Assembly (NCBI GenBank): GCA_943350635.1
Contig: CALRAI010000003.1
Span: 1 to 52,840, forward strand
Source of the DNA: Candidatus Uhrbacteria bacterium
GTDB lineage: Bacteria; Patescibacteriota; Patescibacteriia; UBA9934
DNA: 52,840 nt
Direction of reading: 5' to 3'
Of the stretch, positions 28,517 to 47,298 are shown piece by piece. How positions within the stretch are numbered: the stretch's first letter is position 1; the number at the start of each line of letters is the position of its first letter. Below the pieces are notes generated by a model. The model made no database searches and was not told where the DNA came from. It was given only the letters and a program-made list of their open reading frames with translations. A program made the position numbers and the translations under genes.

Positions 28517-28593
28517 GGGTCGGTAGCTCAACTGGTTAGAGCGCTGCCCTGTCACGGCAGAGGTTGCGGGTTCGAGTCCCGTCCGTCCCGCCA
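28517..28593 (+). tRNA. tRNA-Asp(GUC)
   Basis: Cloverleaf; anticodon GTC 28551-28553; TTCGA loop; encoded CCA; upstream TTGTCA-16-TACTAT. Confidence 0.96.
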
Positions 28594-30108
28594 CAAAGGA
28601 CGATCTGTAGAAATACCGATCGTCTTTTGTATTGAGACTGTCATGTTTAATACTAAATCAAAGGGCTTTTTGAGTTCAAAGGTCAGTTCTCTGTCATCTA
28701 CTTTCGGGTTCTGAATAAGGAAATTCAAGAATGCCCGCTTTTCATGGGTTTCAGAACCATCAAAGATTTCTCGTGCTCGTCGAGCTAAAGAAAGTACCGT
28801 AACGACAGTGGTTTGATAGTCGTAGTTCCCCTTTGAGTGTTCTTCCATTTCGATACCAAGCGTTTGAATACTATCCGTAAGTTCCTGCATCTTTTTGTCG
28901 TAGTCTGCCTTAGTAATACTCTCATCGATAAAGAGGTTGATTAGGCGATCTTTCTGTTTTGTGAGCCGATCGTGTTCGGCTCGGATACGACAAACCTGCG
29001 CCTGATGGAAGGCTATTTCTGCCTCTGTGGTCTTTCTAAGCTCTGCCACGAGGTCTTCCTGTACCTTTTGCTCAATGCTCGCCAAACGGTCAAAAACGGC
29101 GTACACGGGCGTTAAAAGCTTTTTCTCATTGATATACGTCCGTTTACAGGTCTTCTTGGAATTGGTGCAGCTGTAAAGGTTGTATTCCCGTCCACTCTTC
29201 TTCTTTTTGTATTCCGGCGTAATCGAGCAACCACAACGAGCACAATGGAGCAAACCCTGAAAAATATAGTTCCTCGTTGATTTGCTTGGTTCTTTCATTC
29301 TGTTTTCCCGCACCCTTTTGCAACGATCAAACAGTTCTTTGGAAATGAGCTTTTCGTATCTATGGGGGTAGGCTTGATCGTACTTTTTTGAATATGCCAT
29401 TCCGTAGTAGAAGGTATTTTTCAAAACATTTTCAATTGCACTCTTTGAGAGCATATTGCCCTCTCGGCTTTTGAGCCCCGCCTTTGTTATTTCATCTAAT
29501 GTTGTCTGCATTGAGTGATTGCCCGTCGCGTACATTTCAAAAATCTTCACGATCAAGTGAGCTCTCTGAGGATCGGGTACTACGTCTTTATTTCCAATGA
29601 GATCATCCTGATTGATGTATCCGATTATCGCTTGACCCGTAATCTCCCCCTTACGCCTCTTTTGTTCAAACGCGCGTCCGACGTTGTCGCTGATCGCGTC
29701 CGAGTAATACTTCGCCAAACCCAAAGTCATGCTGAACTGAAACTTTTCAGAAGCTGATATTTCGCTATTGATGATTTGACCGTCCGAAATGAAATGAAGT
29801 TCAATTTGACCATTAACAGCCTTGTCGTACAAAGCCGAAACGCGTATATCAAAAACGTTACGCGAAAGTCGATCAACCTTATCAAAACAGACAGCGATCT
29901 TTTCTTTCGTCTGTTCTATGAATTCCAAGATTTTATCGAACTCATCCCGCTTTGTCTTATACGCACTTTCGTCGAATTGAAACGTTTCAACGATCTCAAA
30001 TGCCTTCCTCTTACAATACGCCTGCATACGCTCAATCTGCGCCGGAAGCGAATTCCCAGCCTCGCGTTGCTCTTCGGTTGAAACACGGGCAAGGATTACG
30101 GCTTTCAT
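28552..30108 (-). CDS. Large serine recombinase (integrase)
   Basis: ARVSTEEQ catalytic Ser, DRLSRN, Zn ribbon CARCG...C...C, coiled coil. Last 13 aa (WRDGRDSNPQPLP) are antisense tRNA. Confidence 0.93.
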   Translation of the reverse strand: MKAVILARVSTEEQREAGNSLPAQIERMQAYCKRKAFEIVETFQFDESAYKTKRDEFDKILEFIEQTKEKIAVCFDKVDRLSRNVFDIRVSALYDKAVNGQIELHFISDGQIINSEISASEKFQFSMTLGLAKYYSDAISDNVGRAFEQKRRKGEITGQAIIGYINQDDLIGNKDVVPDPQRAHLIVKIFEMYATGNHSMQTTLDEITKAGLKSREGNMLSKSAIENVLKNTFYYGMAYSKKYDQAYPHRYEKLISKELFDRCKRVRENRMKEPSKSTRNYIFQGLLHCARCGCSITPEYKKKKSGREYNLYSCTNSKKTCKRTYINEKKLLTPVYAVFDRLASIEQKVQEDLVAELRKTTEAEIAFHQAQVCRIRAEHDRLTKQKDRLINLFIDESITKADYDKKMQELTDSIQTLGIEMEEHSKGNYDYQTTVVTVLSLARRAREIFDGSETHEKRAFLNFLIQNPKVDDRELTFELKKPFDLVLNMTVSIQKTIGISTDRPLWRDGRDSNPQPLP

Positions 30109-32411
30109 AGCTGATCAAATCGCTTCCAGCCTGCATTGGTTTTATCGTCTGTATATTTCATTCCGGTAAAAACAAATGTTCCAGTGCGATCGGTGGTAAC
30201 GAGTCCACCAAAAAGGCTCTGTTCGGAATGATCTTTTATATATGCCTGTAGCGCATTCGATTTTACAGTCGCATCTTTCCCGGAAGCGGTGAAGCCGGAT
30301 TTTGTATCAAATACTCCGATAGATCCCCTATCAAAACGCACGATGTAATCGGGATAAAATGCTCGCTCAAAACCCGTGGATTCATCGATGTAAGGAATTG
30401 CAAAATACGAGTCTTTTGATTCTCCATTTTTATACCACCATTCAATAGTTTTTGACGCTTCGAGGATATCCTCAAAAGTCTTTTCTTGAATGGAGCGTTC
30501 CTGATCGAGTAATGCCTTTGTTGGGTGTTGTGCTGATACAACAATGGACTGCTCGCCATTTGCCAGCTCAAATCGCTCGTTAAAATAATCTACTTCCGGA
30601 ACATTCCAATTGTATTTTCGCTTTTTCTGTTTTGCCTGTTTCTCGACTTTATCAATCTCTTTAAACTTGCCCTTTGCACTCTCAATAATTTCGCGAAATA
30701 TCTTCTGGTTAATTTCCGAACAAACCACGATACGTTGGACTTCTAACCTGCTGATCGTTTCGTATCCAAGCTGTTTATCGAACCAGTCATAAATTGCTTG
30801 CTGAATCTTCGTATGGGAACGTACTGGCGCAAACGGTAGTGAGCATACCTTCGCGAATACTTCATACGCGCGCTTAATTTCATCCGGCGATACTGCGAAT
30901 TCCGCGCAACCTGTACCAAGGATTTCTTTTCGCATTTGTTCGTCAATATTCTGGATTATCGCGTCGGAAATAATTACCTTCGTCAATTCTTGCGGCAATA
31001 GATCAAGCTTAATATCAGCTTTGTCTTTCGCTACTCGTTGGTTATCTTCTTCGAGAATACCAAAATACTTATTTGCCTCTTGTTTAAAGAGTCTGCGAAA
31101 TGAAAGGGTAAGATCGCCGTAATCAATTCTGCTTAAATAGATAGAAGCAAGATCAATGGGCTTATAGCTATCTCTACGAACGACACGATGAACTTTGAAA
31201 TATCCTTCGCTTGTACCATCTTGTGCAACGTTTATACGGTCAAGGTTTGTAAATACATATGCTTGGTTCAGGGAATCGTTCTCATAATGTTTTGCTTCTG
31301 GCATTCGCATGATGCGTCCAATGGTTTGAATTTCGAATTGATCGACCTTAATATCACGGAACATTACAAGGATTTGAGCACGAGGGCAGTCCCATCCAAG
31401 TGCGATGGCTTGTTTGAAAATAAGAACATCAACAGGAGAATCATTTTCTGTTATTTCCTCGGTATTATCCTTGCGGTCTGAAAGCCAAACAGCGAGTCTA
31501 CCGTTTTCAACCGTAATTCCATGCTTAGTTTTCAGAATATTTTCTACTTCTTCAAGCTTTGATTGATCGAGCGCGCTTGTAGCTTGAGTATCGCTTGGGA
31601 GCTGAATCAATAGGAGTGGGCGAACATTAGAGCCCTCCGCAATAAAACCAGAACCAAGAGCCTCACGCTTTGCGAGCGAAGCTTCAATAACGACCTCGTC
31701 TGCTGTTTTTCTAAAGTCGCCTAGGCTTCCAAACGCTTCATTAACGATGGTTGCAGATTTAATCATTCCTTCTGAAACAACATCATCGAAACGAATCGAT
31801 ATGAACCCAGCTTCTTCTTGCTCGATCTCTTCGGGGGAAGGAATGACTGATGGAGTAGCAGATACTTCGATGATCAGCTTCGGTGCGATGATACCCTGAA
31901 CAAGCTCCTGTGAACGTTCTGACCAATAATGATAATGACTCTCGTCAACTATTAAGATTATTTCCAAACCAGCCTCTTTGCTATTCGCTACATAGCTTTG
32001 CAGGTTGCGGTTTCCCTCTCCCTCCTTCATGAAAAGATTCTTGAATTCACCTGTTTGTTTATCTTGTTTTGTGAGACTTTCCCAATTGACGAACACGATT
32101 TGATTTTCCTGAAATTGATCATCTGTTATTTCATCAAGCAATGAAAGAACATAACGAGAATCGGCGAGATAGCCCGCAACCTTTTCTTTGCTTTGCAAGT
32201 GAAGATCATTACTTGAAATCCACAGAAAAGCATAGTGATGAGGAAGCTTTGCCAACGTGAGTTGCTTCAAAAATTCAGCGATGACAATTGTCTTACCTGA
32301 CCCCGTCGGTGCTTTAAGCACACAGACACGGCTCCCTTCCTTTTGAAGAAGCGTAGTAGATCGTGCAATTAATTTTGTGACAGCATTTTGCTGATAGCGT
32401 TTGAGAATCAT
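30105..32411 (-). CDS. res: Type III restriction endonuclease Res subunit
   Basis: APTGSGKT, DESH, GWDCPRA, QTIGRIMR; C-terminal YPDYIV...DTK nuclease motif. Confidence 0.9.
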   Translation of the reverse strand: MILKRYQQNAVTKLIARSTTLLQKEGSRVCVLKAPTGSGKTIVIAEFLKQLTLAKLPHHYAFLWISSNDLHLQSKEKVAGYLADSRYVLSLLDEITDDQFQENQIVFVNWESLTKQDKQTGEFKNLFMKEGEGNRNLQSYVANSKEAGLEIILIVDESHYHYWSERSQELVQGIIAPKLIIEVSATPSVIPSPEEIEQEEAGFISIRFDDVVSEGMIKSATIVNEAFGSLGDFRKTADEVVIEASLAKREALGSGFIAEGSNVRPLLLIQLPSDTQATSALDQSKLEEVENILKTKHGITVENGRLAVWLSDRKDNTEEITENDSPVDVLIFKQAIALGWDCPRAQILVMFRDIKVDQFEIQTIGRIMRMPEAKHYENDSLNQAYVFTNLDRINVAQDGTSEGYFKVHRVVRRDSYKPIDLASIYLSRIDYGDLTLSFRRLFKQEANKYFGILEEDNQRVAKDKADIKLDLLPQELTKVIISDAIIQNIDEQMRKEILGTGCAEFAVSPDEIKRAYEVFAKVCSLPFAPVRSHTKIQQAIYDWFDKQLGYETISRLEVQRIVVCSEINQKIFREIIESAKGKFKEIDKVEKQAKQKKRKYNWNVPEVDYFNERFELANGEQSIVVSAQHPTKALLDQERSIQEKTFEDILEASKTIEWWYKNGESKDSYFAIPYIDESTGFERAFYPDYIVRFDRGSIGVFDTKSGFTASGKDATVKSNALQAYIKDHSEQSLFGGLVTTDRTGTFVFTGMKYTDDKTNAGWKRFDQL

Positions 32412-32412
32412 A

Positions 32413-34086
32413 TTAATCGCAGATTTTTCGATAAACCTCTAAGATTGCCTCCGGAATTGGACACAGCGTATGTTTCACGGAGAGATCTTCAAAATCTTCG
32501 CTAAATACATCGTCGGTCAGCGTGAATATATACAAGTGCGCCGGAAGCTTTAATGCATCAATTCTTTGTTTGAATACATCTACTTCGTCAAGATCAAATA
32601 GGATTCCAGTTGCAACCTTTCCATTCGTAAAGATTTTGTACTCCTGATTGTCTGCCTTCTTTGTAAACGCATTTTCTCTAACACAAATCATTTCCGTTGA
32701 CCGTCTTACAAGCGTCTTTCTCGTATCATCAGATGCTTCTGATTTGGGAATAAAAACTGTTTTGAAGTAACGAAGATTACTTGGAATGCCTTTTTCGTCG
32801 GAGTAACCCTCTATAGATTTTTTAATTCGAGGGTATGTTACTTCTTCGGCAATCCCGTTTTCATTGTTTGTTACAAGAATAAATTGGCGAGATCCCTCAT
32901 CCTCTTCGTTTAATTTCATTACCGCATGTCCAGTCGTTCCAGATCCGGCAAAATAATCCAATACAATTGCATTTCTATTGTTAGCTATTACAGCGTGTAG
33001 GCATTCTCTGACGAGGTGAAGGGATTTTGGAAATGAAAAATCACAATTTGGAAGAATCTCTCGCAAAAGCTTTGTTCCATGTAATGAGCCATTATATTCC
33101 GGTTCAGTCCAAACGGTTTTATATTTCTCGTACTCTTTGTAGATTTCAATCTCAAAACCTTCATCAATCTTTTTTGGTTTCAAAATATCTAAAATGTCTT
33201 CTACGCTCTGTCTAGCGTATCTCCATTTTCTTTCTAGTCCTTTTACATCAATTGGCCACACTTCATAAATATCATCGTCGCGCTTGACGGTTTGAGCTTT
33301 TGGATGGAAATCATTGTTTGGCACTTCGCCTAATCCGATAATTTGACCATCTTTAATCAAAAAAGGATAAAAACAATTCTTTGCATCTGTCCTCATCGAC
33401 TCTCCGCCCTTATCGCGAAGATTAAGGTTTGCCTTTGAGTAAGTTTTACGTTTCTTTTCTTGAATTATATTTTTCCCCGTAGGAATGACGTAATAGGCAT
33501 ACTCATGTGTGTATGAAAAGTTTTTACCCTGTACACCTCGCGGGTTATGTATAACGGTTATTGAGTGAAGTTCTTTATTGGGGAACATTTCTTCAAGCAT
33601 TACTCCGAGGTGAGCGTGTTCATTTTCATCAATCGCGCAAATAAGCACGCCATCACTTTTAAGGAGTTTCTTCGCGAGTAAGAGACGGTTGTGCATCATC
33701 GATAACCACTTGCTGTGCCGGAATGTGTCGTTGATATCAACGTAATCATTGTTGTACTTCCAGTCTCTCGCGCCAGTGTTATATGGCGGATCGATATAGA
33801 TCACATCTACTTTCCCCGCATGAGTAAAACTCAATACCGAAAGCGCGTGATAATTATCACCCTCAATAATAAGATTTGTTGGTTGGTCTGGAGCTTCTTC
33901 AATTGCACGTTCTTTCACTTCTTCCAATACAGGCAATTCCGATTTACAAAGCGAAATAACGTTTTCTGGTTTACTTTCCCAAACCAGCCCGTATTTTTTT
34001 CGTTTTTTTAGCGTCTTCACAAGATCAACGAGCTCTTCGCGTGAAAGATCCTCGATCTGCTTCTTTTTTATGGCATTTACTTTCAT
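32413..34086 (-). CDS. mod: Type III N6-adenine DNA methyltransferase Mod subunit
   Basis: IEGDN, IDPPYNTG, then LDYFAGSGTTG (beta-class order). Confidence 0.92.
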   Translation of the reverse strand: MKVNAIKKKQIEDLSREELVDLVKTLKKRKKYGLVWESKPENVISLCKSELPVLEEVKERAIEEAPDQPTNLIIEGDNYHALSVLSFTHAGKVDVIYIDPPYNTGARDWKYNNDYVDINDTFRHSKWLSMMHNRLLLAKKLLKSDGVLICAIDENEHAHLGVMLEEMFPNKELHSITVIHNPRGVQGKNFSYTHEYAYYVIPTGKNIIQEKKRKTYSKANLNLRDKGGESMRTDAKNCFYPFLIKDGQIIGLGEVPNNDFHPKAQTVKRDDDIYEVWPIDVKGLERKWRYARQSVEDILDILKPKKIDEGFEIEIYKEYEKYKTVWTEPEYNGSLHGTKLLREILPNCDFSFPKSLHLVRECLHAVIANNRNAIVLDYFAGSGTTGHAVMKLNEEDEGSRQFILVTNNENGIAEEVTYPRIKKSIEGYSDEKGIPSNLRYFKTVFIPKSEASDDTRKTLVRRSTEMICVRENAFTKKADNQEYKIFTNGKVATGILFDLDEVDVFKQRIDALKLPAHLYIFTLTDDVFSEDFEDLSVKHTLCPIPEAILEVYRKICD

Positions 34087-34265
34087 AGCTTGGTATTTGT
34101 TTCTCTTAGAAGTCGCTCAAATTCGCCTTTAGGAATTCGAAATTCTTTGCCGATTTTATGAGCCTGTAATTTTCCTGATTTGATGTACCGATAAATCGTC
34201 ATGATGTTTACCTCCAACACCTTCGATAGATCTTCTGCTGTGTAGAACTCTTTTTCTGCGTTCAT
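34083..34265 (-). CDS. Excisionase-like HTH DNA-binding protein
   Basis: YTAEDLSKVLEVNIMTIYRYIKSGKLQAHKIGKEFRI. Confidence 0.85.
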   Translation of the reverse strand: MNAEKEFYTAEDLSKVLEVNIMTIYRYIKSGKLQAHKIGKEFRIPKGEFERLLRETNTKL

Positions 34266-34448
34266 ATTGTTTATGATGAGATTATTATACTTTACTTTTC
34301 TTTACACTACTACTTTGCGGAGTGGACAGATTTTGCTTACGAGAAGCTAACGCACGTTTAACGTTTTCTGATATCGCATCCGAGTAGGCTTGTGCGTATG
34401 CTTTTGTGACTGCGATGTGAAACTTTTCCACTGGGGTCAATTCGGTTT

Positions 34449-35573
34449 TCATAATGAAATTTTATAGGGTTTGTATTCTTTGAGTACCATATCGATCTGT
34501 TCGACCCAGTCACGAATCCGATCTTGGGGGATGGTCTTTGCAAAAGCGCGATGTTCCTCCATGATCCTCCCCCATGTACGATCTTTTGCCGTCTTCGAAA
34601 CAATACTTCGAAGTTCTCCGAGTCCGTTTCCTTCCGTTGCCAAGGCAGAAAGGCCAATGAGAAATATCGCTTGCTTTGGCTTTATTCGGGGCTGAGATCT
34701 GTAGATTTCTCGAAGTAGATCCTTGTTGCTTCTTGAAAGCGTGAACAGTCCGTTATTTCTTGCATTGATGATCTTTTTCCAATAGTACAAGACGACTTTT
34801 CGGCTTACGTCGTTTTTGAACATTTGCTTGAACGTAAAATCGTTTTCTTGCACCAATGTTTTGAAGAGACTCTTCATCTTTACTCTTTTGCACAAGCGAA
34901 TCTCGAATCGCAAGATCTCGATAAGCTCCTTTCGCTCTTTAAATTCTTTGAAAAGGTCGATCTGACGTGGCGTTTGATCCCTATCTATTGCACGTTTCTT
35001 TCCTTTATTCAGATCCGCGACCTTGTCGTAAATAACCAATTCGTGAGCGTCGGTGTGAGCACATAGGCTTTGTCCGTCATTGATGAATCGGGCACGTGAA
35101 AAGTCGAAGCTCTTTCGGAGATCGATCTTTCCAATCTCAGATATTAGGTGGATCGCGGTATGCCCGTTGGTGAGTAGGATATTTTTTGAGTAATGGATCG
35201 CGGATACTTTGGCGTTTTCAATAGAATGCTGAAATATTCTTACGCCTACATGTTTCAACCGTTCTGCAAGCGTTTCCACGATACGACCAAAATCTCCGTC
35301 GATAAGCTCTTCGAGGTTGTTACCGTATATAAGTTTTGGAGCTGAGAATTCAATTTTTACATTCTGTAAAATGTCACCCTTTAGTTTTCGTTTGTATAGC
35401 GTCACTCGCGGAAAGTACATACCACTGGTCTTGTCTGCTTTCGTCGGATTACGAACAAACCTTTGGTAGTCTTTCGTTCTGGCCTGTAAATCCCAATCGG
35501 GGATCTCGGTATTGTTCTTGTCGAGAAAAGTACACTCATTCAATGGAACCAGTAAGCAGACGGTGTCGATCAT
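34449..35573 (-). CDS. Putative phage/plasmid replication initiator (gene II/X-like, rolling-circle)
   Basis: MIDTV start, IEFSAPKLIYGNN, VIYDKVAD, ILRFEIRL motifs; located in a mobile element. Confidence 0.6.
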   Translation of the reverse strand: MIDTVCLLVPLNECTFLDKNNTEIPDWDLQARTKDYQRFVRNPTKADKTSGMYFPRVTLYKRKLKGDILQNVKIEFSAPKLIYGNNLEELIDGDFGRIVETLAERLKHVGVRIFQHSIENAKVSAIHYSKNILLTNGHTAIHLISEIGKIDLRKSFDFSRARFINDGQSLCAHTDAHELVIYDKVADLNKGKKRAIDRDQTPRQIDLFKEFKERKELIEILRFEIRLCKRVKMKSLFKTLVQENDFTFKQMFKNDVSRKVVLYYWKKIINARNNGLFTLSRSNKDLLREIYRSQPRIKPKQAIFLIGLSALATEGNGLGELRSIVSKTAKDRTWGRIMEEHRAFAKTIPQDRIRDWVEQIDMVLKEYKPYKISL

Positions 35574-35710
35574 AAATTTGCTTTAGCTTTTAATCGCGTG
35601 TCTACCTCCAAAAGCAACGCAAAGAGTCCAACCAGATTTTCTTTCTCTGGAAGTTTATCGAGCCCATTGGGGGAACTCATGATTGATTCTTTATTGTCAC
35701 CTTTAAACAT
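35570..35710 (-). CDS. 46-aa small protein coupled to rep (absent from the ORF track)
   Basis: MFKGDNKESIMSSPNGLDKLPEKENLVGLFALLLEVDTRLKAKANL; its TGA overlaps the rep ATG (ATGA). Confidence 0.55.
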   Translation of the reverse strand: MFKGDNKESIMSSPNGLDKLPEKENLVGLFALLLEVDTRLKAKANL

Positions 35711-35763
35711 ACGCTGGTAGCTTGATGCGGCCAGCGTAGTAATTCTTTACTTGCGTGTATAAG

Positions 35764-35804
35764 AAAAAAGTGAGGTACAGAATTAATCTGTACCTCACTT
35801 TTTT
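35764..35804. repeat. Perfect 18-bp inverted repeat (terminator, operator or origin)
   Basis: aaaaaagtgaggtacaga-attaa-tctgtacctcactttttt. Confidence 0.7.
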
Positions 35805-36658
35805 TCACGTTTTTTCTTTTCGAGCGAAATGATCTTTCCTATACCTCCGATATCGACATCTGGATAGTTTTTACCTTGGAGAAGTTTACTTATTTCTCGC
35901 CCTGATTTCTCGCGATTTTGGTAAATAATCTCATTCCGTTCAAGGATCTTCTGGTTTGTCTTTGTTTTAGCGAAGGTTAAGCTAGATTTACCGTGATATC
36001 GATTTTGTAGAGCTTTTATGTGTTTCCAATTTTTTTGGATGTAATCGATCACGTCACGTTGGCTGGCGGATTCGCTTATGTTAAGCGATATTGGATATTT
36101 CTTTACAGAATCCTTCATCCAGTGAATATGCATATTAGATAGGATTTCAACCATATGTTGATCAAGGACAAAATCTGCGTCCAGCCTCCCTTCTTTATTT
36201 AAAAATTTACTTATCTGTTTTTGAAAAGAAAAGTCCGGAAAAGCATCCTCAAAATCCTTACGCGCATCAGAGATGTTACAAAGATTTTCTAGTCTAAATA
36301 ATTTTGAATATTGTGAGATTTCGTCAAAAAGAAAAAGGTTGTAGTAAATATAACAGCGAACAACTTGTTCGATATAGCTAGTACAGAAAGGCAACTTAAT
36401 TGTGATTCGTTTAATGGCATCATCCATTTCCTTAAAATAGGCTGGGATATCTTCGGGATATTTCCCTCGAAGGGAAGTCGGCGTATAAATCGAAAAATAA
36501 AAACGTGATCGATCTTCCTCTGACATTACAAGACCATTTTCAGGAATTCCGATAGCTTTTCTAATTCCAAATACTTCTGATGTGAATTCATGAGTCACGA
36601 TCAGCTTTTTAAATTCTGTGAGAATCTTCTTTTCTCCTTGTGTTTGTTTAGATTCCAT
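35795..36658 (-). CDS. Hypothetical protein with possible C-terminal HTH
   Basis: 287-aa AT-rich ORF; basic tail KSGREISKLL...IGKIISLEKKKR. Confidence 0.7.
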   Translation of the reverse strand: MESKQTQGEKKILTEFKKLIVTHEFTSEVFGIRKAIGIPENGLVMSEEDRSRFYFSIYTPTSLRGKYPEDIPAYFKEMDDAIKRITIKLPFCTSYIEQVVRCYIYYNLFLFDEISQYSKLFRLENLCNISDARKDFEDAFPDFSFQKQISKFLNKEGRLDADFVLDQHMVEILSNMHIHWMKDSVKKYPISLNISESASQRDVIDYIQKNWKHIKALQNRYHGKSSLTFAKTKTNQKILERNEIIYQNREKSGREISKLLQGKNYPDVDIGGIGKIISLEKKKREKK

Positions 36659-36702
36659 TTTTATACTTTACGTTACTCGGTAATGAATAGTAAAGTATGT
36701 GC

Positions 36703-38187
36703 ATGTTAATCACAAAAACCGATTACCTCGAATACACCTTTTGCCGAAAGAATCTTTGGCTTAGGAAACACAAACCCGAATTATTCGAGAATGTTGAGTT
36801 TAGCGATTTCGAGAAGAAGATCATTGAAGATGGAAACCTTGCCGAATCGGCGTGCCGGAAGCTATTCCCCGAAGGCATACTGATTGAATCTTCCGGCAAA
36901 CAGGCTATCGCGGAAACAAAAATGGAGATTGATTCGGACAAACAAACGCTCTTTCAAGCCACATTTCAGGATGATGTGTTCTTTATTCGCGCCGATATTC
37001 TCCGATACTCCCCCGAACTTCATGGCTGGGAGCTTTTTGAGGTAAAGGCAACGAATGAGGTGAAGCGTAAGGTGCCGCACCATCACGTCAACGACTTGGC
37101 ATTTCAAAAAATCATCATAGAACGGTGTGGATTGAAGATCGTCAAAGCATCTGTAATCCATCTGAACCGCGAATACGTGAAGCATGGAGCCGTGAATTTC
37201 CATGAGCTTTTCGTCTACGCTGATCTCACGGGGGAGGTCATCGAGGCAGAAATACAAGTGAAGCAGGAAATGGAAGATGCAAAGGCATACCTAAACTCCC
37301 CCGAAGAGAAAGGCTGTTTGTGTATTTACGAAGGGCGATCAAATCATTGCTCAACCTTTCCGTATTCCAACCCCGAAGTACCCGAATATTCAGTTCATGA
37401 TTTCAACCGTATCGGCATGAGTAAAAAAAAGCTTATTGACTGGATAGACAAGGGGGAGCTGTCTTTTGCCGACATTCAGAACCCAGAAGCTCTCAATGAT
37501 GCTCAACGACGGCAATACGACGCGCATACACTAAGCCGATCTATCGTCGATAAAGACGCGATTCACGACGTGCTGAATGATTTAGTCTTTCCGTTGCAAT
37601 TCTTCGATTATGAAGGCTATTCCAGCGCAATGCCTCTGTTCGACGGTTTTGGCGCATACGAACAAGTGCCGTTTCAGTATTCGCTTCACATTCTGCATGA
37701 AGATGGCACAATCGATCACAAAGAATTCCTTATCACAGAACCGTCGAGCGACTTGACGCTTCCGCTTATCGAGCGCATGAAAACGGATATTGATCCCAAG
37801 GGAACCGTCATTTCTTGGTACAAATCCTATGAATCTCAGCGGAACGACAAGCTCGCGGAGCTTCATCCGGAATACGCGCCATTTCTCAAAGAACTGAATG
37901 ACAAGATGTTCGACTTGATGACGATCTTTTCCGACGGTTATTACGTCGATCGGGCGTTCAAAGGGAGTGCGAGTATCAAGAAGGTATTACCTGTGGTCGT
38001 TCCGTCGCTATCGTATAAAACAATGAACATTCACGAAGGGAGCCAAGCGAGCGAACGTTGGGAAAAACTGATTTCAGCGAAAACATCCCAAGCCGAAAAA
38101 GACAAAATCGCCAAAGACTTACTCGAATACTGCAAGCTGGATACATGGGCGATGGTGGAAATCTATCGATTCCTCAAAACACTCTAA
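36703..38187 (+). CDS. DUF2779-type protein: PD-(D/E)xK nuclease plus RNase H-like exonuclease domain
   Basis: ADILR...LFEVKAT; FFDYEG...QVPFQYSLH...SIKKVLP...YCKLDTWAM. Confidence 0.8.
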   Translation: MLITKTDYLEYTFCRKNLWLRKHKPELFENVEFSDFEKKIIEDGNLAESACRKLFPEGILIESSGKQAIAETKMEIDSDKQTLFQATFQDDVFFIRADILRYSPELHGWELFEVKATNEVKRKVPHHHVNDLAFQKIIIERCGLKIVKASVIHLNREYVKHGAVNFHELFVYADLTGEVIEAEIQVKQEMEDAKAYLNSPEEKGCLCIYEGRSNHCSTFPYSNPEVPEYSVHDFNRIGMSKKKLIDWIDKGELSFADIQNPEALNDAQRRQYDAHTLSRSIVDKDAIHDVLNDLVFPLQFFDYEGYSSAMPLFDGFGAYEQVPFQYSLHILHEDGTIDHKEFLITEPSSDLTLPLIERMKTDIDPKGTVISWYKSYESQRNDKLAELHPEYAPFLKELNDKMFDLMTIFSDGYYVDRAFKGSASIKKVLPVVVPSLSYKTMNIHEGSQASERWEKLISAKTSQAEKDKIAKDLLEYCKLDTWAMVEIYRFLKTL

Positions 38188-38189
38188 AT

Positions 38190-38873
38190 ATGATTCTTCC
38201 ATTTCTTCGCAAAGTGCTCGATGAGAATGGATTGTTTCATGGCAAGTTGCCCGAAGAATACGATCGAGAAGTTGTTGTCAGACTCATCGACTGGGTCAAA
38301 CAGGATTCGCCCGATACGGAAGAGATGAAAGAGCGAATCTCCGAAGAACAGCTTTCTATTCCGGAGGAATATCAACCCTATTTTCAAAACTACGATTCGT
38401 GTTATGCGTTTCTCCAACTTGCACGTTTAGAGTCCGAATCGTCGAGTTATTATTTTCCTTGGAGGAAACATTGCACGCCCGAACAGAAAGAGTGGGTGGA
38501 AAGTTGGTTTGTATTCAACGACGATGGACAATTGAATCTCGTCGAATCAGCGAAGAAACTTCGGGCTGATGAGGATCGGGGTCATCAAGCTGAAAAAGGT
38601 GAAGACATCCGAAAAGAGGTTCAATCCATGTTTGATTACTTTGGTTATTCAACAATTGAAATGGAGATATATGCTGCCGCCTATTCCATTCTCGGAGGAA
38701 CAGCGGAAGAAATCGTGCAAAAGGTCGGGGAAGATTCCCCGAGAGTGTACTTTTATCTGACAAAGCTCATACGCGATGGGTTTCTTATTGAGGCGTACAG
38801 GGATAAGACGCGAATCTATATTCCGATTACGATTCGTAAACTTTCTGTAAGGATGGGTGGTCTGGTGATTTAA
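38190..38873 (+). CDS. Hypothetical protein with C-terminal TrmB-like winged helix
   Basis: FGYSTIEMEIY...TAEEIVQKVG..SPRVYFYLTKLIRDGFL; starts 2 bp after the DUF2779 gene. Confidence 0.65.
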   Translation: MILPFLRKVLDENGLFHGKLPEEYDREVVVRLIDWVKQDSPDTEEMKERISEEQLSIPEEYQPYFQNYDSCYAFLQLARLESESSSYYFPWRKHCTPEQKEWVESWFVFNDDGQLNLVESAKKLRADEDRGHQAEKGEDIRKEVQSMFDYFGYSTIEMEIYAAAYSILGGTAEEIVQKVGEDSPRVYFYLTKLIRDGFLIEAYRDKTRIYIPITIRKLSVRMGGLVI

Positions 38874-38985
38874 CAATTTTTCGGTAATACATTGATAGAA
38901 TCTATCATTCTTTGCTTTGTTGGAAGGACCTGATAAAGTCTCCATTCATAACGGTAAAAATTGGATCTGGTATTATTAAGGCAAT

Positions 38986-39471
38986 ATGACTAAAGAAATC
39001 CAATTAACAGCTCAAAAAGTTGCCGAGTATTTTCTTTGGCTTGCGAAAGAGGAGGGAAAATCGATGACTAATAAGAAGCTCCAAAAGATGATTTACTACG
39101 CCCAAGCGTGGTTTCTTGCCATTCATGGTAATAAAATCTTTAACGATAAAATTGAAGCGTGGGTACATGGGCCTGCTGTTCGTGCTGTTTACATCAAGTA
39201 CAAAAAGTTTGGATTTGGGCCAATTGATTTACTGCCCTCAAAAGAGGAAATTTTGGAAATTCCGGAAGACAAGAAGAATTTCTTAAAAGAAGTTTGGAAG
39301 ATTTATGGCAAATACGACGCCGCATATTTAGAACGGCTGAGTCATTCCGAGATTCCGTGGCAAAAGGCTAGAGAAAATCTTGAACCCAATATGGGATCTG
39401 AAAACGAAATATCACCATCAGAAATGAGTACTTTTTACGGAGCAAAACTAAAAGCCAGACAAGCTGTTTAA
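38986..39471 (+). CDS. Panacea (DUF4065/GepA/SocA-like) antitoxin
   Basis: TNKKLQKMIYYAQ, IEAWVHGP, LSHSEIPW. Confidence 0.88.
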   Translation: MTKEIQLTAQKVAEYFLWLAKEEGKSMTNKKLQKMIYYAQAWFLAIHGNKIFNDKIEAWVHGPAVRAVYIKYKKFGFGPIDLLPSKEEILEIPEDKKNFLKEVWKIYGKYDAAYLERLSHSEIPWQKARENLEPNMGSENEISPSEMSTFYGAKLKARQAV

Positions 39472-39474
39472 GTT

Positions 39475-39912
39475 ATGGGAATTCCAAAACTTGATGAACC
39501 GATTCAATCTGGAGAAATACCTCTCGATAGTGCGGAGTTACCACAGGATGACGTTGAACCAGAATTGATTCCGTATCTCATTTCGTTTCAAAGGTATAAC
39601 AGAAAGGAGTGTAAAATCGAAGAAATGGAAGCGAAATCTGCAAGAAAAGCATTCAAAGTCGTGAGAGATATAGGAATGAAGGTTAGAACCGAAGCTGATT
39701 TTAAAGTACATTTTCCAAAACTTGTTATAGCTCCTGTTGAGGACATTGGAGCGTACCGAGATCTTTTCAGGGGATTACGAGATTCACTAGATATAGAAAT
39801 GAAAGAGCTAAAATTCGAAACGGATAAAGGCAGATTGTTCTTTTTTGTGATCGATAAAATTTTTCATGTGGTTGCCGTGAGAGATAGCCATTACGAAGTA
39901 GACAAAAGATAG
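39475..39912 (+). CDS. Putative cognate toxin, possibly RelE/ParE-like fold
   Basis: 3 bp after the Panacea gene; C-terminal ELKF..KGRLFFFV...FHVVAV...H. Confidence 0.55.
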   Translation: MGIPKLDEPIQSGEIPLDSAELPQDDVEPELIPYLISFQRYNRKECKIEEMEAKSARKAFKVVRDIGMKVRTEADFKVHFPKLVIAPVEDIGAYRDLFRGLRDSLDIEMKELKFETDKGRLFFFVIDKIFHVVAVRDSHYEVDKR

Positions 39913-39936
39913 ATGAGAATTGCATTTAGTACATCC

Positions 39937-40012
39937 GCCCTCGTAGCTCAACGGATAGAGTAAGGCGGTTCTAACGCCAAGGTTGAAGGTTCGACTCCTT
40001 CCGAGGGCACCA
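39937..40012 (+). tRNA. tRNA-Arg(UCU)
   Basis: GCCCTCG/CGAGGGC acceptor stem, GGATA D-loop (A20), loop GT-TCT-AA, encoded CCA. Confidence 0.88.
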
Positions 40013-40321
40013 AGTTTTACAAAATAAAGGAAATAGCACAAGATATAAATGACTCCTACTAAATCAAACCATTGGAAGGGGATGAAATCGCCAATGACCC
40101 GCTCAGCAATGGGCGGGCTTAGTCGTTATTGAGGAAACTTTCAAAAGAGGTTATCCTTTGGGAGATTCCACAAAAGGACAATCGGCTGTAGGAACCGTAA
40201 GTAGTCAGTCGCGGCAGAAATGCCGCCTTTTGTTTTATACGGTACAAAGCTCCATCACCCCGCTAAACCGCAATTCCTGCTCAAACGCACCCCAATTCAT
40301 GGTTCTGAACGCGTCCACTAT

Positions 40322-40411
40322 GTCCCGCCAGGATAATTTCTTATCGGATAGACCCGTAGGCCTCATGCCGCGCGGGGCGACCCATAGGGATTTGTCTCCA
40401 AAACACAACCG
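40322..40411 (+). repeat. 90-bp direct repeat copy 1 (att core plus structured arm)
   Basis: Matches 41141-41229 except two substitutions and one indel; runs into terminator acaaccgtcc-gaaa-gggcggttttgt. Confidence 0.9.
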
Positions 40412-40504
40412 TCCGAAAGGGCGGTTTTGTTGTTTTGCCTTCAGTCCTTCTACAGGTTACCGGGTTTTGTTGGTATGCTTCTTTTACTTAATATCCGTCA
40501 GCTT

Positions 40505-41053
40505 ATGAATTCTGCACGAAGACTTTTTCTTGCTTTTGGCCTTATCGGAGCGCTATTTGGATGGCTCGGCAGTACCACGCCCGCCTTCGCGTGTTCGTGC
40601 GCCATGGCCACACCGAGCGAACAGTTTGAGAACGCTAAAGCAGTTTTTGTAGGGACGGTGAAAGATATCTCTGCAGATGGTTACGATAATATTGTGGATT
40701 TTGACGTAAGTGAATCACGGAAGGGTTTGAATACAAAAAGCGTTAGCGTTACGACAAGTCAACAAGGGGCTTCGTGTGGTTTCTCTTTCGAAAAAGGCCG
40801 AGAGTACACCGTGTATGCATACGATGATAACGGAGACCTTGGTACAGGAATTTGTAGCGGAACATCTCTGCTTATTGCTGACGCTCAGGATGGCGACAGT
40901 GAAATCGATATCACGAGCAATCCCACGGATCCAGCAATAAAAACAACAAAGAGTAAGAATTCTATCGCTCCCATCGTAATCGCGGTCATCATTTCATTTA
41001 TCGCTGGTGCATTGGCAACGCACGCGGTGGAGCATCGAAAGAAAACCAAATAA
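40505..41053 (+). CDS. Secreted TIMP/NTR-like protein with C-terminal membrane anchor
   Basis: Signal peptide ending AFA followed by CSC; VFVGTV, SCGFSF..G.EYTVYA, TGIC; C-terminal TM. Confidence 0.7.
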   Translation: MNSARRLFLAFGLIGALFGWLGSTTPAFACSCAMATPSEQFENAKAVFVGTVKDISADGYDNIVDFDVSESRKGLNTKSVSVTTSQQGASCGFSFEKGREYTVYAYDDNGDLGTGICSGTSLLIADAQDGDSEIDITSNPTDPAIKTTKSKNSIAPIVIAVIISFIAGALATHAVEHRKKTK

Positions 41054-41140
41054 GCCTAACCCACTCGCCTTAAATCGCTCCAAAAATAGCCGTCGAAATA
41101 CCCTTGTATAACCCTCATTATCTTGGTACTGAACTCACAC

Positions 41141-41229
41141 GTCCCACCAGGATAATTTCTTATCGGATAGACCCGTAGGCCTCATACCGCGCGGGGCGCC
41201 CATAGGGATTTGTCTCCAAAACACAACCG
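41141..41229 (+). repeat. Direct repeat copy 2 with degenerate att core GTCCCACCA
   Basis: See copy 1 at 40322-40411. Confidence 0.9.
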
Positions 41230-41286
41230 CCTGAAAATGGGGTTTTTGTTGTACAATCAAATCACCTCTACATAAGTTTCTCGCGT

Positions 41287-41424
41287 ATGCTAAAGAAAAG
41301 CGAAACGCCGATCAATATTACAATCATGTCCGTAGGAGGGCGTGGCGCAAACGTTATGGAACGCTTATACTCTCACTATAGCTTAGGCCTTCGTGGCGAT
41401 AACTATCGCGAACGTGATTCATAG
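41287..41424 (+). pseudogene. Possible truncated FtsZ/tubulin-like N-terminal fragment
   Basis: INITIMSVGGRGANVMERL resembles the FtsZ KIKVIGVGGGG.NA..RM motif. Confidence 0.35.
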
Positions 41425-41434
41425 CGAAATAATT

Positions 41435-41902
41435 ATGAATATAGCAAGCGCACTCGACGTGTTAGGACTTTTTCTTTTCATCGCCGGCTTCGTAATCGGA
41501 CTCGGCGCGGTAACTGTTATTGACATTCATGGTTACTTAGGGCGAAGATCTTCATACTGGACCAAGGCCACCACTCAGACACATAAAGTCACTAAACCAA
41601 TGATTTGGGCGGGAATCGCACTCGCAATCATCGGCGGTCTGATTTTCTATCGTTCCGAGCGGATTCTTGGCATCCCGCTTGTGCACGCCGTCATCGCCCT
41701 TGTTCTTATTGCAAATGGGTATTTTCTTTCTTTCAAAGTAAGTCCCTTCTTGCTTACTCGTGAAAAGTCAGGTCATTCTGGTGACCTACTGCCTGTAACA
41801 TGGCAAAGGAAAATTATGGTGAGTTTGATTATTTCAGATCTCGGATGGTGGGGCGGGCTACTTTTGCTCTCCATACATATCGTAAACCGACAAACTCTAT
41901 GA
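41435..41902 (+). CDS. Four-TM hypothetical membrane protein
   Basis: Four hydrophobic segments; ATGA overlap with the next gene. Confidence 0.75.
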   Translation: MNIASALDVLGLFLFIAGFVIGLGAVTVIDIHGYLGRRSSYWTKATTQTHKVTKPMIWAGIALAIIGGLIFYRSERILGIPLVHAVIALVLIANGYFLSFKVSPFLLTREKSGHSGDLLPVTWQRKIMVSLIISDLGWWGGLLLLSIHIVNRQTL

Positions 41903-42417
41903 AAAATATTCTCTTTTTACTGGGCACTGCGCGTGAAGGACGTATGAGTGAAAGGGTAGCTCGTTTCGTGGTACGTTGCGCAAAGGAGCGAGGAGATATA
42001 GATGTGGCATTCGTTGACGTTGCAGATTTCTCTCAGTCGAAGACGAAGGGCAATAGTGTCGCGGAGGAGGCGTGGGATGCGTTTTTACAAAAAGCTGATG
42101 GACTCGTGATTATTTCTCCGGAGTACAACCATGGCTATCCGGGAGAACTCAAGCTCTTCTTGGATAACGCGTACGAGGCGTATGCGGGTAAACCGGTCGC
42201 AATCTGCGGAGTGTCTAATGGGTCCGTAGGCGGGGCCAGGATGGCTGAACAATTAAAGCTGGTGTTATCCGCCTTTCAGATGATCGTTATTAATGCCGCT
42301 GTCTATTTTGTAAATGTGGATGAGCATTTTGACGACTCAGGAAATACAAATGCTATGGATCTTTGGAAGAAAAAGGTGAATGGCATGCTCGACCAGGTTA
42401 TCAAATATTCCAAATAA
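41899..42417 (+). CDS. NADPH-dependent FMN reductase family protein
   Basis: GTAREGRMS, SPEYNHGYPGELKLFLD, GGAR. Confidence 0.9.
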   Translation: MKNILFLLGTAREGRMSERVARFVVRCAKERGDIDVAFVDVADFSQSKTKGNSVAEEAWDAFLQKADGLVIISPEYNHGYPGELKLFLDNAYEAYAGKPVAICGVSNGSVGGARMAEQLKLVLSAFQMIVINAAVYFVNVDEHFDDSGNTNAMDLWKKKVNGMLDQVIKYSK

Positions 42418-42491
42418 GACGCTCAGCCATTTATGAATTTGTCAGCGAGCATATGCCGGAAGAACCACGGACTGGTAAAATTGCGGTAATT

Positions 42492-43550
42492 ATGGATATG
42501 ACCCTGTTTCAAAATGAATTTTCTCCCTTTCTCAAGGCAACGGTTCATGACCACATTCAAGTATTTACCAAAACAACTCAAGATGCATTTCTCGGAGAGG
42601 CTGTTGAGCATATCAGTATGCTTGTTGGCGGAGGTAAACGCCTCAGGCCGTACCTCTCATCCATCGGATACGTGGCAGGAGGAGGACGGGATCGTGCCTT
42701 AATGATGCGGTTCGGTGTTGCGCTAGAGCTCTTTCATGTTTTTTGCCTCATACACGATGACATTATCGACAAAGCAGCAACACGCCGTAACGTGGCCACT
42801 GTTGAAGCATTTGTCCAGGACCACCTTCGCGCACAGGCTCGGAGAGGCGATCTGAGTCACCTCGCAAAAAGCCATGCGATTCTTCTTGGTGATCTCGTTT
42901 TTTCTTGGGCGTCTCGACACATGTGTGCGACGGCCCTTCTCTCGCCCCTTCCTCAAACTGTACTTGATGAGTATTACGGGATGGTTGATGAGGTAGTCGC
43001 AGGACAAATGATCGATGTCGACACCATGACTCGTGACGAACATGACGAAGGGTTACTCGAGCGAAAAATGTATCTCAAGACTGCGGGCTATTCCTTTGTG
43101 CGGCCCTTACGTCTCGGCCTTCGTCTGTCGGGTAATGCGACGGAAAAATCGCTTGCTGAGATGACTGCCATCGGAACACCCATGGGATTAGCATTCCAAT
43201 TGCAGGATGATGTATTTGATATCACGAGCAGCGTGGATGTGTTAGGCAAGCCGATTTTGTCCGATATTCGCGACGGACAACAAACGTTTCTCACAGCTTT
43301 TGTTGCACAACACGGCACTCCACAAGAAAAACTCTTGCTTGAGCGCGTGATGCATGGATCTGGCAGTGATGAGGATATGCATGCCTTGCGTGAGATACTT
43401 GTAACGAATGGTGCCGTTGCACGGGCTCAGTTTCGCATGAACGAATTGTGGAAAAGTACCAGGCATGCGATTGATCACGCGACGTTTCCTCATGAAATAC
43501 AAGAAGCACTCCATGCGCTCGTTGTTGCACTGCAGTCCCGCGTTCGCTAG
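42492..43550 (+). CDS. crtE: Polyprenyl (GGPP) synthase
   Basis: GGKRLRP, DDIID...RR, KTAGY, FQLQDD; adjacent to crtB and crtI. Confidence 0.85.
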   Translation: MDMTLFQNEFSPFLKATVHDHIQVFTKTTQDAFLGEAVEHISMLVGGGKRLRPYLSSIGYVAGGGRDRALMMRFGVALELFHVFCLIHDDIIDKAATRRNVATVEAFVQDHLRAQARRGDLSHLAKSHAILLGDLVFSWASRHMCATALLSPLPQTVLDEYYGMVDEVVAGQMIDVDTMTRDEHDEGLLERKMYLKTAGYSFVRPLRLGLRLSGNATEKSLAEMTAIGTPMGLAFQLQDDVFDITSSVDVLGKPILSDIRDGQQTFLTAFVAQHGTPQEKLLLERVMHGSGSDEDMHALREILVTNGAVARAQFRMNELWKSTRHAIDHATFPHEIQEALHALVVALQSRVR

Positions 43551-43553
43551 AGT

Positions 43554-46720: not shown

Positions 46721-46779
46721 ATATACTGCATAGTATAAGCTTCCCGCGGTACGATAACAATAAACACCATTTGCAATAT

Positions 46780-47298
46780 ATGAAGAAAACACCTCGGAGA
46801 ATTATCGTGAATGATAAAATGCAGAAAAATTATACGTATACGCTTACCGAGCCAATTGGCCGAAATTTTCATCTTGATTTTACGCCGGAACTCACGCCAA
46901 AAGAGATGCTTGCGTTGGGAGTATTTGGGGGCAAATATATGACCGACTGCAAACAAGAGTTTCCTAAAAGCTGGTTTACGCGTGCGAAGTTTTCACCAGA
47001 ACATCACGATGACACGCTCAACTTCTTTCGCGAACACGCCAGCCAACCGCTAAAAGTTTGGCAGGAAAAGGGATGGATAAATGAAGAACATGATCCTCGC
47101 GGCTGGTTTCAGTGGTACTGCCGCTACTATATGGGTAGACGACTCGACGCCGAGGATGGGCGACAAATCAAGCGCTGGAGAGCTATTGTTCGCCACATCG
47201 CCCAACTCAAGAAACATTGTCGTACCGGAGATATTTCGTGCCGACCAATCCAGCGTCAGGCCATCCTTCATTGGGCCTACGATTCGCGCAACATGTAA
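46780..47298 (+). CDS. Conserved hypothetical protein
   Basis: LTPKEMLALGVFGGKY, DPRGWFQWYCRYYMGRR, RQAILHWAYD; function unknown. Confidence 0.8.
   Translation: MKKTPRRIIVNDKMQKNYTYTLTEPIGRNFHLDFTPELTPKEMLALGVFGGKYMTDCKQEFPKSWFTRAKFSPEHHDDTLNFFREHASQPLKVWQEKGWINEEHDPRGWFQWYCRYYMGRRLDAEDGRQIKRWRAIVRHIAQLKKHCRTGDISCRPIQRQAILHWAYDSRNM

Follow-up and report, generated by a model that had tools for sequence, protein, structure and literature searches.

The window analysed here is a 52,840-nucleotide (nt) stretch of contig CALRAI010000003.1 from a Candidatus Uhrbacteria genome (Patescibacteriota), and the subject of this report is an 819-bp unit within it that carries a single gene between two copies of an attachment (att) core matching the 3' end of a tRNA-Asp gene. 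We consider it likely that this unit is a miniature integrative element that lacks a recombinase gene, belongs to the same family as autonomous elements encoding a large serine recombinase of about 455 amino acids (Int455), and relies on a recombinase supplied in trans. Small elements of its kind accumulate at the 3' ends of tRNA genes in the ultra-small Patescibacteria.

A single-gene unit bounded by two att cores

The genome of the window (949,427 bases in 54 contigs, 97.7% complete, GC content 0.491) contains only two copies of a 107-nt direct repeat, at 40322-40428 and 41141-41246, which share 93% identity with one 1-nt indel (E 4e-39) and start 819 nt apart. Each copy begins with a 9-nt core that corresponds to the 3' end of tRNA-Asp and continues into a 67-nt hairpin and a terminator, which together we call the arm. 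The core is matched three times in the window, compared with 0.65 matches expected by chance. Identity between the copies is 95% over the first 61 nt and 90% over the 48 nt that follow the indel, so that the terminator portion is the more diverged; the first ~90 nt differ by two substitutions and the indel. A preliminary description of this DNA had reported the core and about 80 bp beyond it as repeated with three differences and enclosing exactly one gene, and both observations are confirmed. The left arm (arm1), hairpin and stem/T-run terminator together, has a predicted folding energy of -44.6 kcal/mol (z -2.7), and a terminator scan calls positions 40407-40426.

The enclosed gene, c208, is the only open reading frame (ORF) of more than 60 amino acids in the unit and has no recombinase domain. 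Its frame is open from a TTG at 40427, with the likely start at the ATG at 40505, and ends at 41053. The product has a signal peptide, a mature N-terminus beginning CSC, four cysteines that are invariant in its protein family and a C-terminal membrane helix. Judging from weak profile matches (Pfam E 0.12; PDB profiles of TIMP-2 and TIMP-3, E 0.07-0.2, beginning at the first cysteine), it may be TIMP/NTR-like. Paralogues of c208 lie directly downstream of tRNA-Ser(gct) in the genome of the window (contig C37, L031:1507-2007) and in another genome (G028). The right end of the unit is a conserved module, P2, which together with core 2 spans 41062-41149 and begins 9 nt past the c208 stop codon.

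The same unit occurs behind a different tRNA in another family

To place the unit in a wider context, the conserved 5' part of the arm was searched as an exact pattern across 185,579 species genomes, which returned 101 stretches. One of these (L100, from a Patescibacteria metagenome-assembled genome, or MAG) reads tRNA-Ser(cga), CCGCCA, arm, c208, P2, GTCCCGCCA and aligns to window positions 40325-41149 (825 nt, 90.4% identity), with homology that sets in at CCGCCA and breaks off immediately after the second core. The sequence on either side is unrelated: past the second core L100 has a different, small terminator hairpin, and its flanks have no blastn or tblastx match in the genome of the window. 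The unit also stands out by composition, with a GC content of 0.487 between flanks of 0.576 and 0.616. The c208 proteins of the two loci are 87% identical, whereas the pyruvate kinase of the L100 genome is only 49% identical to that of the window's genome (the congeners G010 and G002 reach 83% and 73%). Two families thus carry this 819-bp unit behind different tRNAs at 90% identity, although their housekeeping proteins agree at only about 49%; the unit must therefore have moved after it had become small. The proposal in the preliminary description that the cores bound a non-autonomous element is thus borne out at a second tRNA locus. The L100 arm resembles the arms found at tRNA-Asp and yet sits behind tRNA-Ser, as would be the case if the arm travels with the unit.

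Within the order, the interior of the unit was found in three of 162 genomes and in two families: the window's genome, its congener G010 and a genome of the other family (G130). The G130 match and L100 (assigned to G061) probably represent the same genome, since they have the same contig number and nearly the same coordinates. In G010 the order is P1 (the right end of the neighbouring island, described below), core, ~150 nt of unrelated sequence, c208, P2, core and an unrelated terminator. The other congener, G002, has no c208, and carries a P2-core-arm junction at the start of a contig and a tRNA-Asp-arm junction at the end of one. Among the JGI metagenome contigs, a protein-based scan found no relative of c208, and an exact 30-nt stretch of the cargo unit gave 0 matches.

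Both ends are shared with elements that encode a serine recombinase

P2 is a non-coding end module of about 90 nt that can be aligned across 31 junctions, with blastn matches of the window's copy at several of the loci retrieved. At 15 loci or more the P2 core is followed by a plain terminator in place of an arm, which indicates that the arm belongs to the incoming element and that a P2-core-arm junction marks a stack of elements. This bears directly on an earlier suggestion concerning the minus strand. Left of the second core it does read WWDV followed by a stop codon, and then EFSTKIMR, while WRDIVDAFRT is read left of the first core, just as had been reported. The interpretation of the former as a decayed integrase tail does not hold, however, because P2 is conserved as a non-coding end at those 31 junctions and because the recombinase gene of full-length elements points the other way.

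We then took a census of units, each measured from an arm to the P2 core that next follows it in the retrieved DNA. Unit lengths fall into two groups. Ten short units of 409-1340 nt, distributed over nine genomes and including those of the window and L100, contain no recombinase. Eight full-length units of 2638-3816 nt each contain a reverse-strand ORF of 453-502 amino acids whose 5' end lies ~170-330 nt from the core; three of these ORFs are large serine recombinases according to Pfam, and six are 93-100% identical to a 457-residue protein of locus L105 (Int457), with the assignment at L102 based on the nucleotide identity of the right module only. The layout of an autonomous element is accordingly an arm, one or two cargo genes, the ~455-residue recombinase Int455 on the reverse strand, and the ~90-nt P2 module ending in CCGCCA. 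Both ends of the short units are therefore common to recombinase-bearing elements, in keeping with the shared arm postulated earlier.

The Int455 proteins of three genomes are 92-94% identical to one another, 72% identical to the type found in G037, and 28% identical to Int518, the large serine recombinase encoded next to the tRNA-Asp gene of the window; identity to a second large serine recombinase of the window's genome (C23, L178:1399-3066, 555 amino acids) is 39% and confined to the catalytic domain. In full-length elements the right ~1.7 kb is conserved at 83-85% nucleotide identity and the cargo differs. The same pattern holds in genomes from three families (G017, G037 and G040), where the arm (~90%) and the recombinase gene (~85%) are conserved and the 3 kb between them differs; at the right end of these three, conservation upstream of the recombinase stops after the first part of P2, with no CCGCCA junction in the DNA fetched. 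Among 31 tRNA-adjacent arms with at least 3.5 kb of sequence available, nine are followed within 4 kb by an Int455 gene on the opposite strand, and only one of 32 has such a gene upstream. No conjugation or relaxase family was named by Pfam for the ORFs scanned in elements of the Int455 family.

The cargo of the short units varies. It comprises a Peptidase_M23 protein (L082), NUDIX proteins (L083/L084 and L150) and the membrane protein c208 (window and L100), while the cargo of five units matches no Pfam family. Over 778 nt the two NUDIX units are 79.6% identical, and their contexts differ. The shortest unit (L139:823-1237; 409 nt from a P2-preceded arm to the next P2 core) has one 82-residue ORF with no Pfam match and may be an almost empty shell of two ends.

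Several loci display these units in arrays. At L084 the order is tRNA-Ser(cga), a peptidase S51 gene, a P1-type junction, an arm, a NUDIX gene, a P2 junction and a further arm, with a spacing of 768 nt; this is the architecture of the window with other cargo. At L105 it is tRNA-Ser(tga), arm, two ORFs, Int457, P2 junction and arm, and L121-L123 hold three arms and two recombinases. L144 reads arm, Fic gene, degenerate tRNA end, arm, more genes and Int502. Two genomes (L121:2805-4022 and L144:504-1712) share the succession Fic/DOC-family gene, degenerate tRNA 3' end, arm, which seems to be another kind of right-hand junction. Stacking at a tRNA 3' end with variable single-gene cargo, as envisaged in the preliminary description, is consequently seen both here and in other genomes.

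The arm is a conserved structured element

To characterize the arm, we started from 100 distinct pattern matches, each 110 nt or longer, among them the two of the window. A hairpin test (first base paired with the last, energy of -15 kcal/mol or lower) was passed by 70; among the other 30 are chance hits in coding sequences of other phyla as well as some real arms for which the test is too strict. When the 28 nt upstream of the 70 were classified by regular expression, 47 abutted a tRNA 3' end (where checked, mostly tRNA-Ser and some tRNA-Asp), 10 followed a P2 sequence (TTTGGYACTGAAC, N7, CCGCCA), 4 followed a P1 sequence like that at the island end and 9 followed something else. The arm is thus neither confined to this genome nor tied to one cargo, and it is linked to tRNA ends.

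Across 64 aligned arms, 99% of the cells in the two basal helices are paired, and sliding the partners by 1-3 columns lowers this to 44-60%; of each helix, the search pattern had fixed the 5' strand and left the 3' strand free. The first pair switches from G-C to C-G in 21 sequences, with five G-U, and three pairs alternate between U-G and U-A. Since the many U-G pairs would be C-A mismatches on the opposite strand, folding of the tRNA-sense strand is favoured. RNAalifold recovered only the two basal helices from the MAFFT alignment, in which the apical stem is misaligned; the apical segments were for this reason folded singly. All but a few of the 61 distinct apical segments form a stem, which by eye is kept by many different sequences, and the signal relative to mononucleotide shuffles is modest (mean z -1.3; 36 of 61 below -1). 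Visual comparison also suggests that TTGGCAC in P2 and GTGCAA in the arms of the tRNA-Ser type are roughly symmetric about CCGCCA.

Searches against Rfam gave no match at the gathering score, the best at E of 10 or lower being STnc50 with 22 bits against a gathering score of 55. An identity as signal recognition particle (SRP) RNA, 6S RNA or a riboswitch was dropped after inspection by eye: the arm ends in its own terminator, the downstream genes vary, and it has no SRP motif of the kind that we take to be conserved. The presence of only two copies in the window's genome rules out a genome-wide repeat. The possibility that the arm is purely a native tRNA-Asp trailer is weakened by the three families mentioned above, in which arms and recombinase genes are alike at the nucleotide level and the cargo between them differs, and by the 15 or more loci at which the P2 core leads into something other than an arm. 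The arm pattern also matched five stretches in IMG/VR, of which two (L179 and L180) are real arms and three look like chance. L179, a 56-kb contig classed as viral with its arm at position 3001, has a P1-type junction, followed by the arm and then by the 3' portion of a gene of the Int455 family, so that prophages may be among the P1-type elements.

The Int518 serine-recombinase island entered after the mini-element

The window contains three RNA genes detected by ARAGORN and Rfam: tRNA-Asp(gtc) (28517-28593), tRNA-Arg(tct) (39937-40012) and one tmRNA. The tRNA closest to the repeat pair is the tRNA-Arg, which is cargo near the right end of an 11.7-kb island; the tRNA-Asp lies 11.7 kb upstream and adjoins the arm directly only in variants that lack the island. 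Three tRNA-Asp(gtc) genes are present in the genome, the loci C20:9183-9258 and C41:530-602 being among those noted. Of the 19 ORFs scanned with Pfam between 25.3 and 46.8 kb none has a tyrosine-integrase domain, and the recombinases found are of the serine type.

At the left end of the island, the ORF of Int518 crosses the core into the antisense strand of tRNA-Asp (its translation ends in PLWRDGRDSNPQPLP and a stop, the tail being WRD-GRDSNPQPLP). At the right end, the minus strand of P1 extends the same recombinase frame. The congener G010 has a recombinase 81% identical to Int518 at its own tRNA-Asp, and its P1 keeps the same minus-strand frame and stop, with changes that the alignment indicates are synonymous or conservative. 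Together these features place attP inside the 3' end of the recombinase gene and set the limits of the island at the cores starting at 28585 and 40322. Int518 thus appears to span its own attP, and integration may switch the C-terminus of the enzyme, the predicted tail being WRD-GRDSNPQPLP when integrated and WRD-IVDAFRTMNWGAFEQELRFSGVMELCTV if excised; G010 retains the longer Int518-type tail (minus-strand comparison of 28552-28593 with 40229-40330).

Public contigs support these boundaries. In runs X3 and X4, from two studies, assembled contigs join 28584 to 40322 and skip 11737 nt, with 9 letters that fit both sides; both flanks are covered and the depth over the island is 0 in most bins and never above 3. 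In runs X1 and X2 the island is present. The island therefore combines recombinase domains, a 9-nt core at both ends and an observed empty site, as in large-serine-recombinase integrative elements. The order in the island-free variant is tRNA-Asp, arm1, gene, core 2, arm2. Since the X3 and X4 contigs put tRNA-Asp directly on arm1, the Int518 island came later than the mini-element.

The cargo of the island (30105-39912) looks defence-like, with a ResIII helicase of 768 amino acids, an N6/N4 DNA methylase of 557 amino acids, a DUF2779 protein and a SocA/Panacea-domain protein, along with several ORFs that match no Pfam family. On the other side of the mini-element, arm2 is an earlier trailer of tRNA-Asp that has been displaced, or the left end of an older element. 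Its hairpin is intact, its terminator is not called by the terminator scan, and its best match among full-length arm matches is the tRNA-Asp-adjacent arm of G002 (84%). A third unit from 41230 onward, as had been suggested, is unproven: to the right of arm2 the window has no further GTCCCRCCA and no further P2-type junction. The region there differs among congeners, and homology with G010 resumes only near 47968-48218. It holds a carotenoid-type cluster at 41393-46792 (genes for a membrane protein, FMN reductase, polyprenyl synthetase, phytoene/squalene synthase, CrtI-like oxidase and UbiA prenyltransferase), where G010 and G002 have other genes, and may be another acquired block.

Table 1 Features of the tRNA-Asp locus in the window
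Feature	Position	Strand	Basis or remark
tRNA-Asp(gtc)	28517..28593	+	ARAGORN, Rfam, sequence, core count
Core in tRNA-Asp	28585-28593	+	GTCCCGCCA, final 9 nt of the tRNA gene; attL of the 11.7-kb island
Int518, large serine recombinase, 518 aa	28552..30108	-	Pfam Resolvase, Recombinase, Zn_ribbon_recom (E 7e-21, 2e-15, 2e-8)
Int518 island, 11.7 kb	28594..40321		GC 0.413 vs 0.491 in the genome; contig joints
P1 arm, right end of the Int518 island	40232..40321	-	Minus strand extends the recombinase frame: WRD, then IVDAFRTMNWGAFEQELRFSGVMELCTV and stop
Core 1	40322-40330	+	GTCCCGCCA; island/mini-element junction
Mini-element, 819 bp (arm1, one gene, P2 module, core 2)	40331..41149	+	90.4% identity over 825 nt to L100:792-1616
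Arm1, left end (hairpin 40331-40397, 67 nt; intrinsic terminator 40399-40437)	40331..40437	+	Fold, terminator scan, conservation in 64 arms
Cargo gene c208	40505..41053	+	ORF open from TTG 40427; likely start ATG 40505
P2 module, right end of the mini-element	41062..41140	+	31-junction alignment; blastn matches to L121, L084, L139
Core 2	41141-41149	+	GTCCCACCA; G>A relative to tRNA-Asp, G010 and L100
Arm2, displaced earlier tRNA-Asp trailer or left end of an older element	41150..41253	+	Hairpin intact, terminator degenerate

Proposed mechanism and alternative explanations

Based on these results, we propose that the mini-element keeps both ends and one cargo gene of an autonomous Int455 relative, and that a serine recombinase supplied in trans would recombine its attP (P2, CCGCCA, arm) with the CCGCCA in which a tRNA gene ends. 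In the window, the mini-element entered between tRNA-Asp and the previous trailer, arm2, and, by bringing its own arm along, re-created the tRNA/arm junction at which the Int518 island, driven by another serine recombinase, later inserted. What the data show directly is where the unit begins and ends, that it has spread horizontally, that its ends are shared, in which order the events took place and how precisely the island is joined; catalysis in trans by an Int455-type enzyme, the roles of the arm and the passage between cells are inferred. Mini units would move whenever an Int455-type enzyme is present in the cell. The arm would supply the P' half-site and replace the tRNA trailer and its terminator, much as islands with tyrosine integrases restore the tRNA 3' end, and the re-created junction would admit further elements, including those of other recombinase families such as Int518. 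The preliminary description had assigned the stacking to the neighbouring serine recombinase. That assignment is not supported, as Int518 uses P1 and is only distantly related to the P2-associated ~455-residue family, no member of which was found in the window's genome, although Int518 and the C23 recombinase are present. The mini-element is probably stranded in this genome.

Several observations weigh against this proposal. Core 2 carries a G>A change and the terminator of arm2 is degenerate. The assembled contigs, which cannot show rare forms, contain neither a circle junction nor a unit-free joint from 40322 to 41141. The G010 copy of c208 and P2 has unrelated sequence where the arm should be, so that the arm is dispensable or was lost there. 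No recombinase lies within 4 kb of 22 of the 31 tRNA-adjacent arms, and some arms may hence be resident tRNA trailers and not element ends. The census itself, being based on an exact match to the 5' part of the arm, favours conserved arms. Finally, a full Int455 gene (E of 1e-40 or lower) is present in only two (G068 and G069) of the ten genomes that have an arm-and-P2 mini unit or the armless c208 copy; G065 has a partial match and G000, G010, G061, G062, G063, G064, G066 and G067 have none, several of the ten being draft MAGs of unstated completeness.

Much of this would also be expected if the unit were an immobile scar, that is, the deletion remnant of a full recombinase element that never moved in its small form, with arrays arising from serial integration of full elements followed by decay. 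The decayed core 2 and arm2, the loss of the arm from the G010 copy and the missing cognate recombinase in most mini-unit genomes all fit such a history, and the account of CIMEs in PMC5704250 gives exactly this three-step route. We nevertheless regard it as unlikely, because one and the same 819-bp unit, internal junctions included, stands behind different tRNAs in two families at an identity far above that of their housekeeping proteins. Moreover, the NUDIX unit likewise occurs in two contexts, the lengths of the units are bimodal (409-1340 versus 2638-3816 nt), and no recombinase-gene remnants were noticed in the ORF lists or Pfam scans of the mini units.

An alternative in which the mini-element does travel, but in cis, as a passenger when a neighbouring autonomous element such as the Int518 island excises through the outermost sites (as in CIME-ICE tandems), strikes us as less probable still. 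It would account for the fact that the unit of the window and that of G010 each immediately follow an Int518-type island, for the NUDIX unit behind a P1-type junction in L083/L084, and for the GGTWCTGAAC...CCGCCA that P1 and P2 have in common. The spacing from P1 to the core and from P2 to the core, however, differs by ~4 nt, the unit is retained in island-free variants, and at L100 it follows tRNA-Ser on its own: the 4.8 kb retrieved there contain no recombinase, and that genome has no Int455-like match at E of 1e-8 or lower. A purely local origin, whether by tandem duplication of the tRNA-Asp trailer or through a dispersed intergenic repeat lying by chance on either side of a native gene, is very improbable. 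Two arms 93% identical and 819 nt apart could suggest it, as could the c208 paralogues just downstream of tRNA-Ser(gct) in C37 and G028, but the genome holds only two copies, their left flanks are the P1 and P2 junctions and not duplicated sequence, and most arms elsewhere (47 of 70) abut tRNA 3' ends. The L100 alignment, which places both limits of the unit precisely at the cores in a different family, and the X3 and X4 contigs already contradict it.

More speculatively, and with considerably less confidence than in the trans-mobilized mini-element itself, the observations could reflect a serine-recombinase cassette system of Patescibacteria. A portable two-part site (the ~90-nt P2 and a hairpin/terminator arm that doubles as tRNA trailer) would turn any single gene into a sub-kilobase element shuttled between tRNA CCA ends across families; each insertion would re-create the target, and arrays would grow outward from the tRNA. 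In that case the hairpin would act as a functional RNA, transcribed from the promoter of the host tRNA and involved in tRNA 3' processing, in insulation or in the control of recombination.

Comparison with known systems

Recombinase-less elements that accumulate by site-specific accretion with integrative and conjugative elements (ICEs) or integrative and mobilizable elements (IMEs) are known as cis-mobilizable elements (CIMEs), for instance at the ICESt1/ICESt3 locus of Streptococcus thermophilus (PMC5704250). As in CIMEs, the unit has no integration or transfer gene inside and retains both att-type ends, each homologous to an end of an autonomous element. It also shares with them a tandem position next to such an element at a target gene's 3' end, where the most recent arrival is closest to the target. 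It differs from the CIMEs described there in that the recombinases are of the large serine and not the tyrosine type, no conjugation genes were seen in the ORFs scanned, the units are much smaller (0.4-1.3 kb, mostly with a single gene), one such unit has spread between bacterial families, and the left end is a structured hairpin and terminator that replaces the tRNA trailer. With no conjugation or relaxase family named among the ORFs of the Int455 family, the unit is CIME-like in logic and not an ICE derivative.

Staphylococcal cassette chromosome (SCC) elements integrate at rlmH/orfX by means of Ccr recombinases. They and the ccr-less psi-SCC elements of composite islands offer parallels in the large serine recombinases, the single site at a gene 3' end, the recombinase-less cassettes between repeated att sites and the tandem composites. 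Here, by contrast, the targets are tRNA-Asp and tRNA-Ser 3' ends and not rlmH, and the elements are 10-100 times smaller. We know of no SCC counterpart of the hairpin/terminator arm. Accretion of CIMEs and composite psi-SCC islands are the nearest known concepts.

In Prochlorococcus, tyrosine recombinases serve 910 of the 937 tycheposons and cryptic elements, many of which also have replication genes (bioRxiv 10.1101/2020.12.28.424599). The portions of that study available to us describe cargo elements at tRNA genes in which successive entries push older ones inward, leaving partial tRNA copies and degenerate remnants, and a minority that use large serine recombinases; in these respects the systems are alike. 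The repeats there are partial tRNAs, whereas here they consist of a 6-9-nt core and a non-tRNA hairpin arm, and those portions contain no class of sub-kilobase recombinase-less units with both ends conserved.

The preliminary description had likened the arrangement to an integron. Integron cassettes are also single-gene units with an imperfect hairpin-forming site that gather at one location, newest nearest the insertion point. Unlike them, the present units are associated with serine-type recombinases (no tyrosine recombinase was found among the 19 ORFs scanned), and their homology breakpoints fall in CCGCCA, 5' of the base of the hairpin and outside it. In addition, the arm has a conserved sequence with a terminator at its end, the left and right ends of a unit do not resemble each other, and the cargo appears to have its own promoter. 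The integron comparison is therefore not upheld, and the earlier interpretation as a whole is only partly supported. Miniature inverted-repeat transposable elements (MITEs) offer another parallel, being short derivatives reduced to the ends of an autonomous element, whose enzyme they need in trans. In contrast to MITEs, the units described here are site-specific (the CCA end of tRNAs), carry genes, and have neither terminal inverted repeats nor a target duplication, the flanking repeat being the att core.

Implications for gene exchange in Patescibacteria

The ultra-small genomes of the Candidate Phyla Radiation (Patescibacteria) are thought to be short of gene-exchange routes, and their mobile elements are poorly described. 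Among the full-text matches listed in a literature search, none describes serine-recombinase islands at tRNA ends in Patescibacteria, and those combining the Candidate Phyla Radiation with serine recombinases concern inoviruses. If our interpretation is correct, these organisms would harbour a family of very small site-specific integrative elements (2.6-3.8 kb) together with recombinase-less derivatives (0.4-1.3 kb) that move single accessory genes across families. The elements would provide compact natural attP/attB pairs for serine integrases, and the arm would represent an uncatalogued structured element fused to tRNA 3' ends. The system would also constitute a concrete mechanism for accessory-gene flux at the tRNA loci of Patescibacteria.

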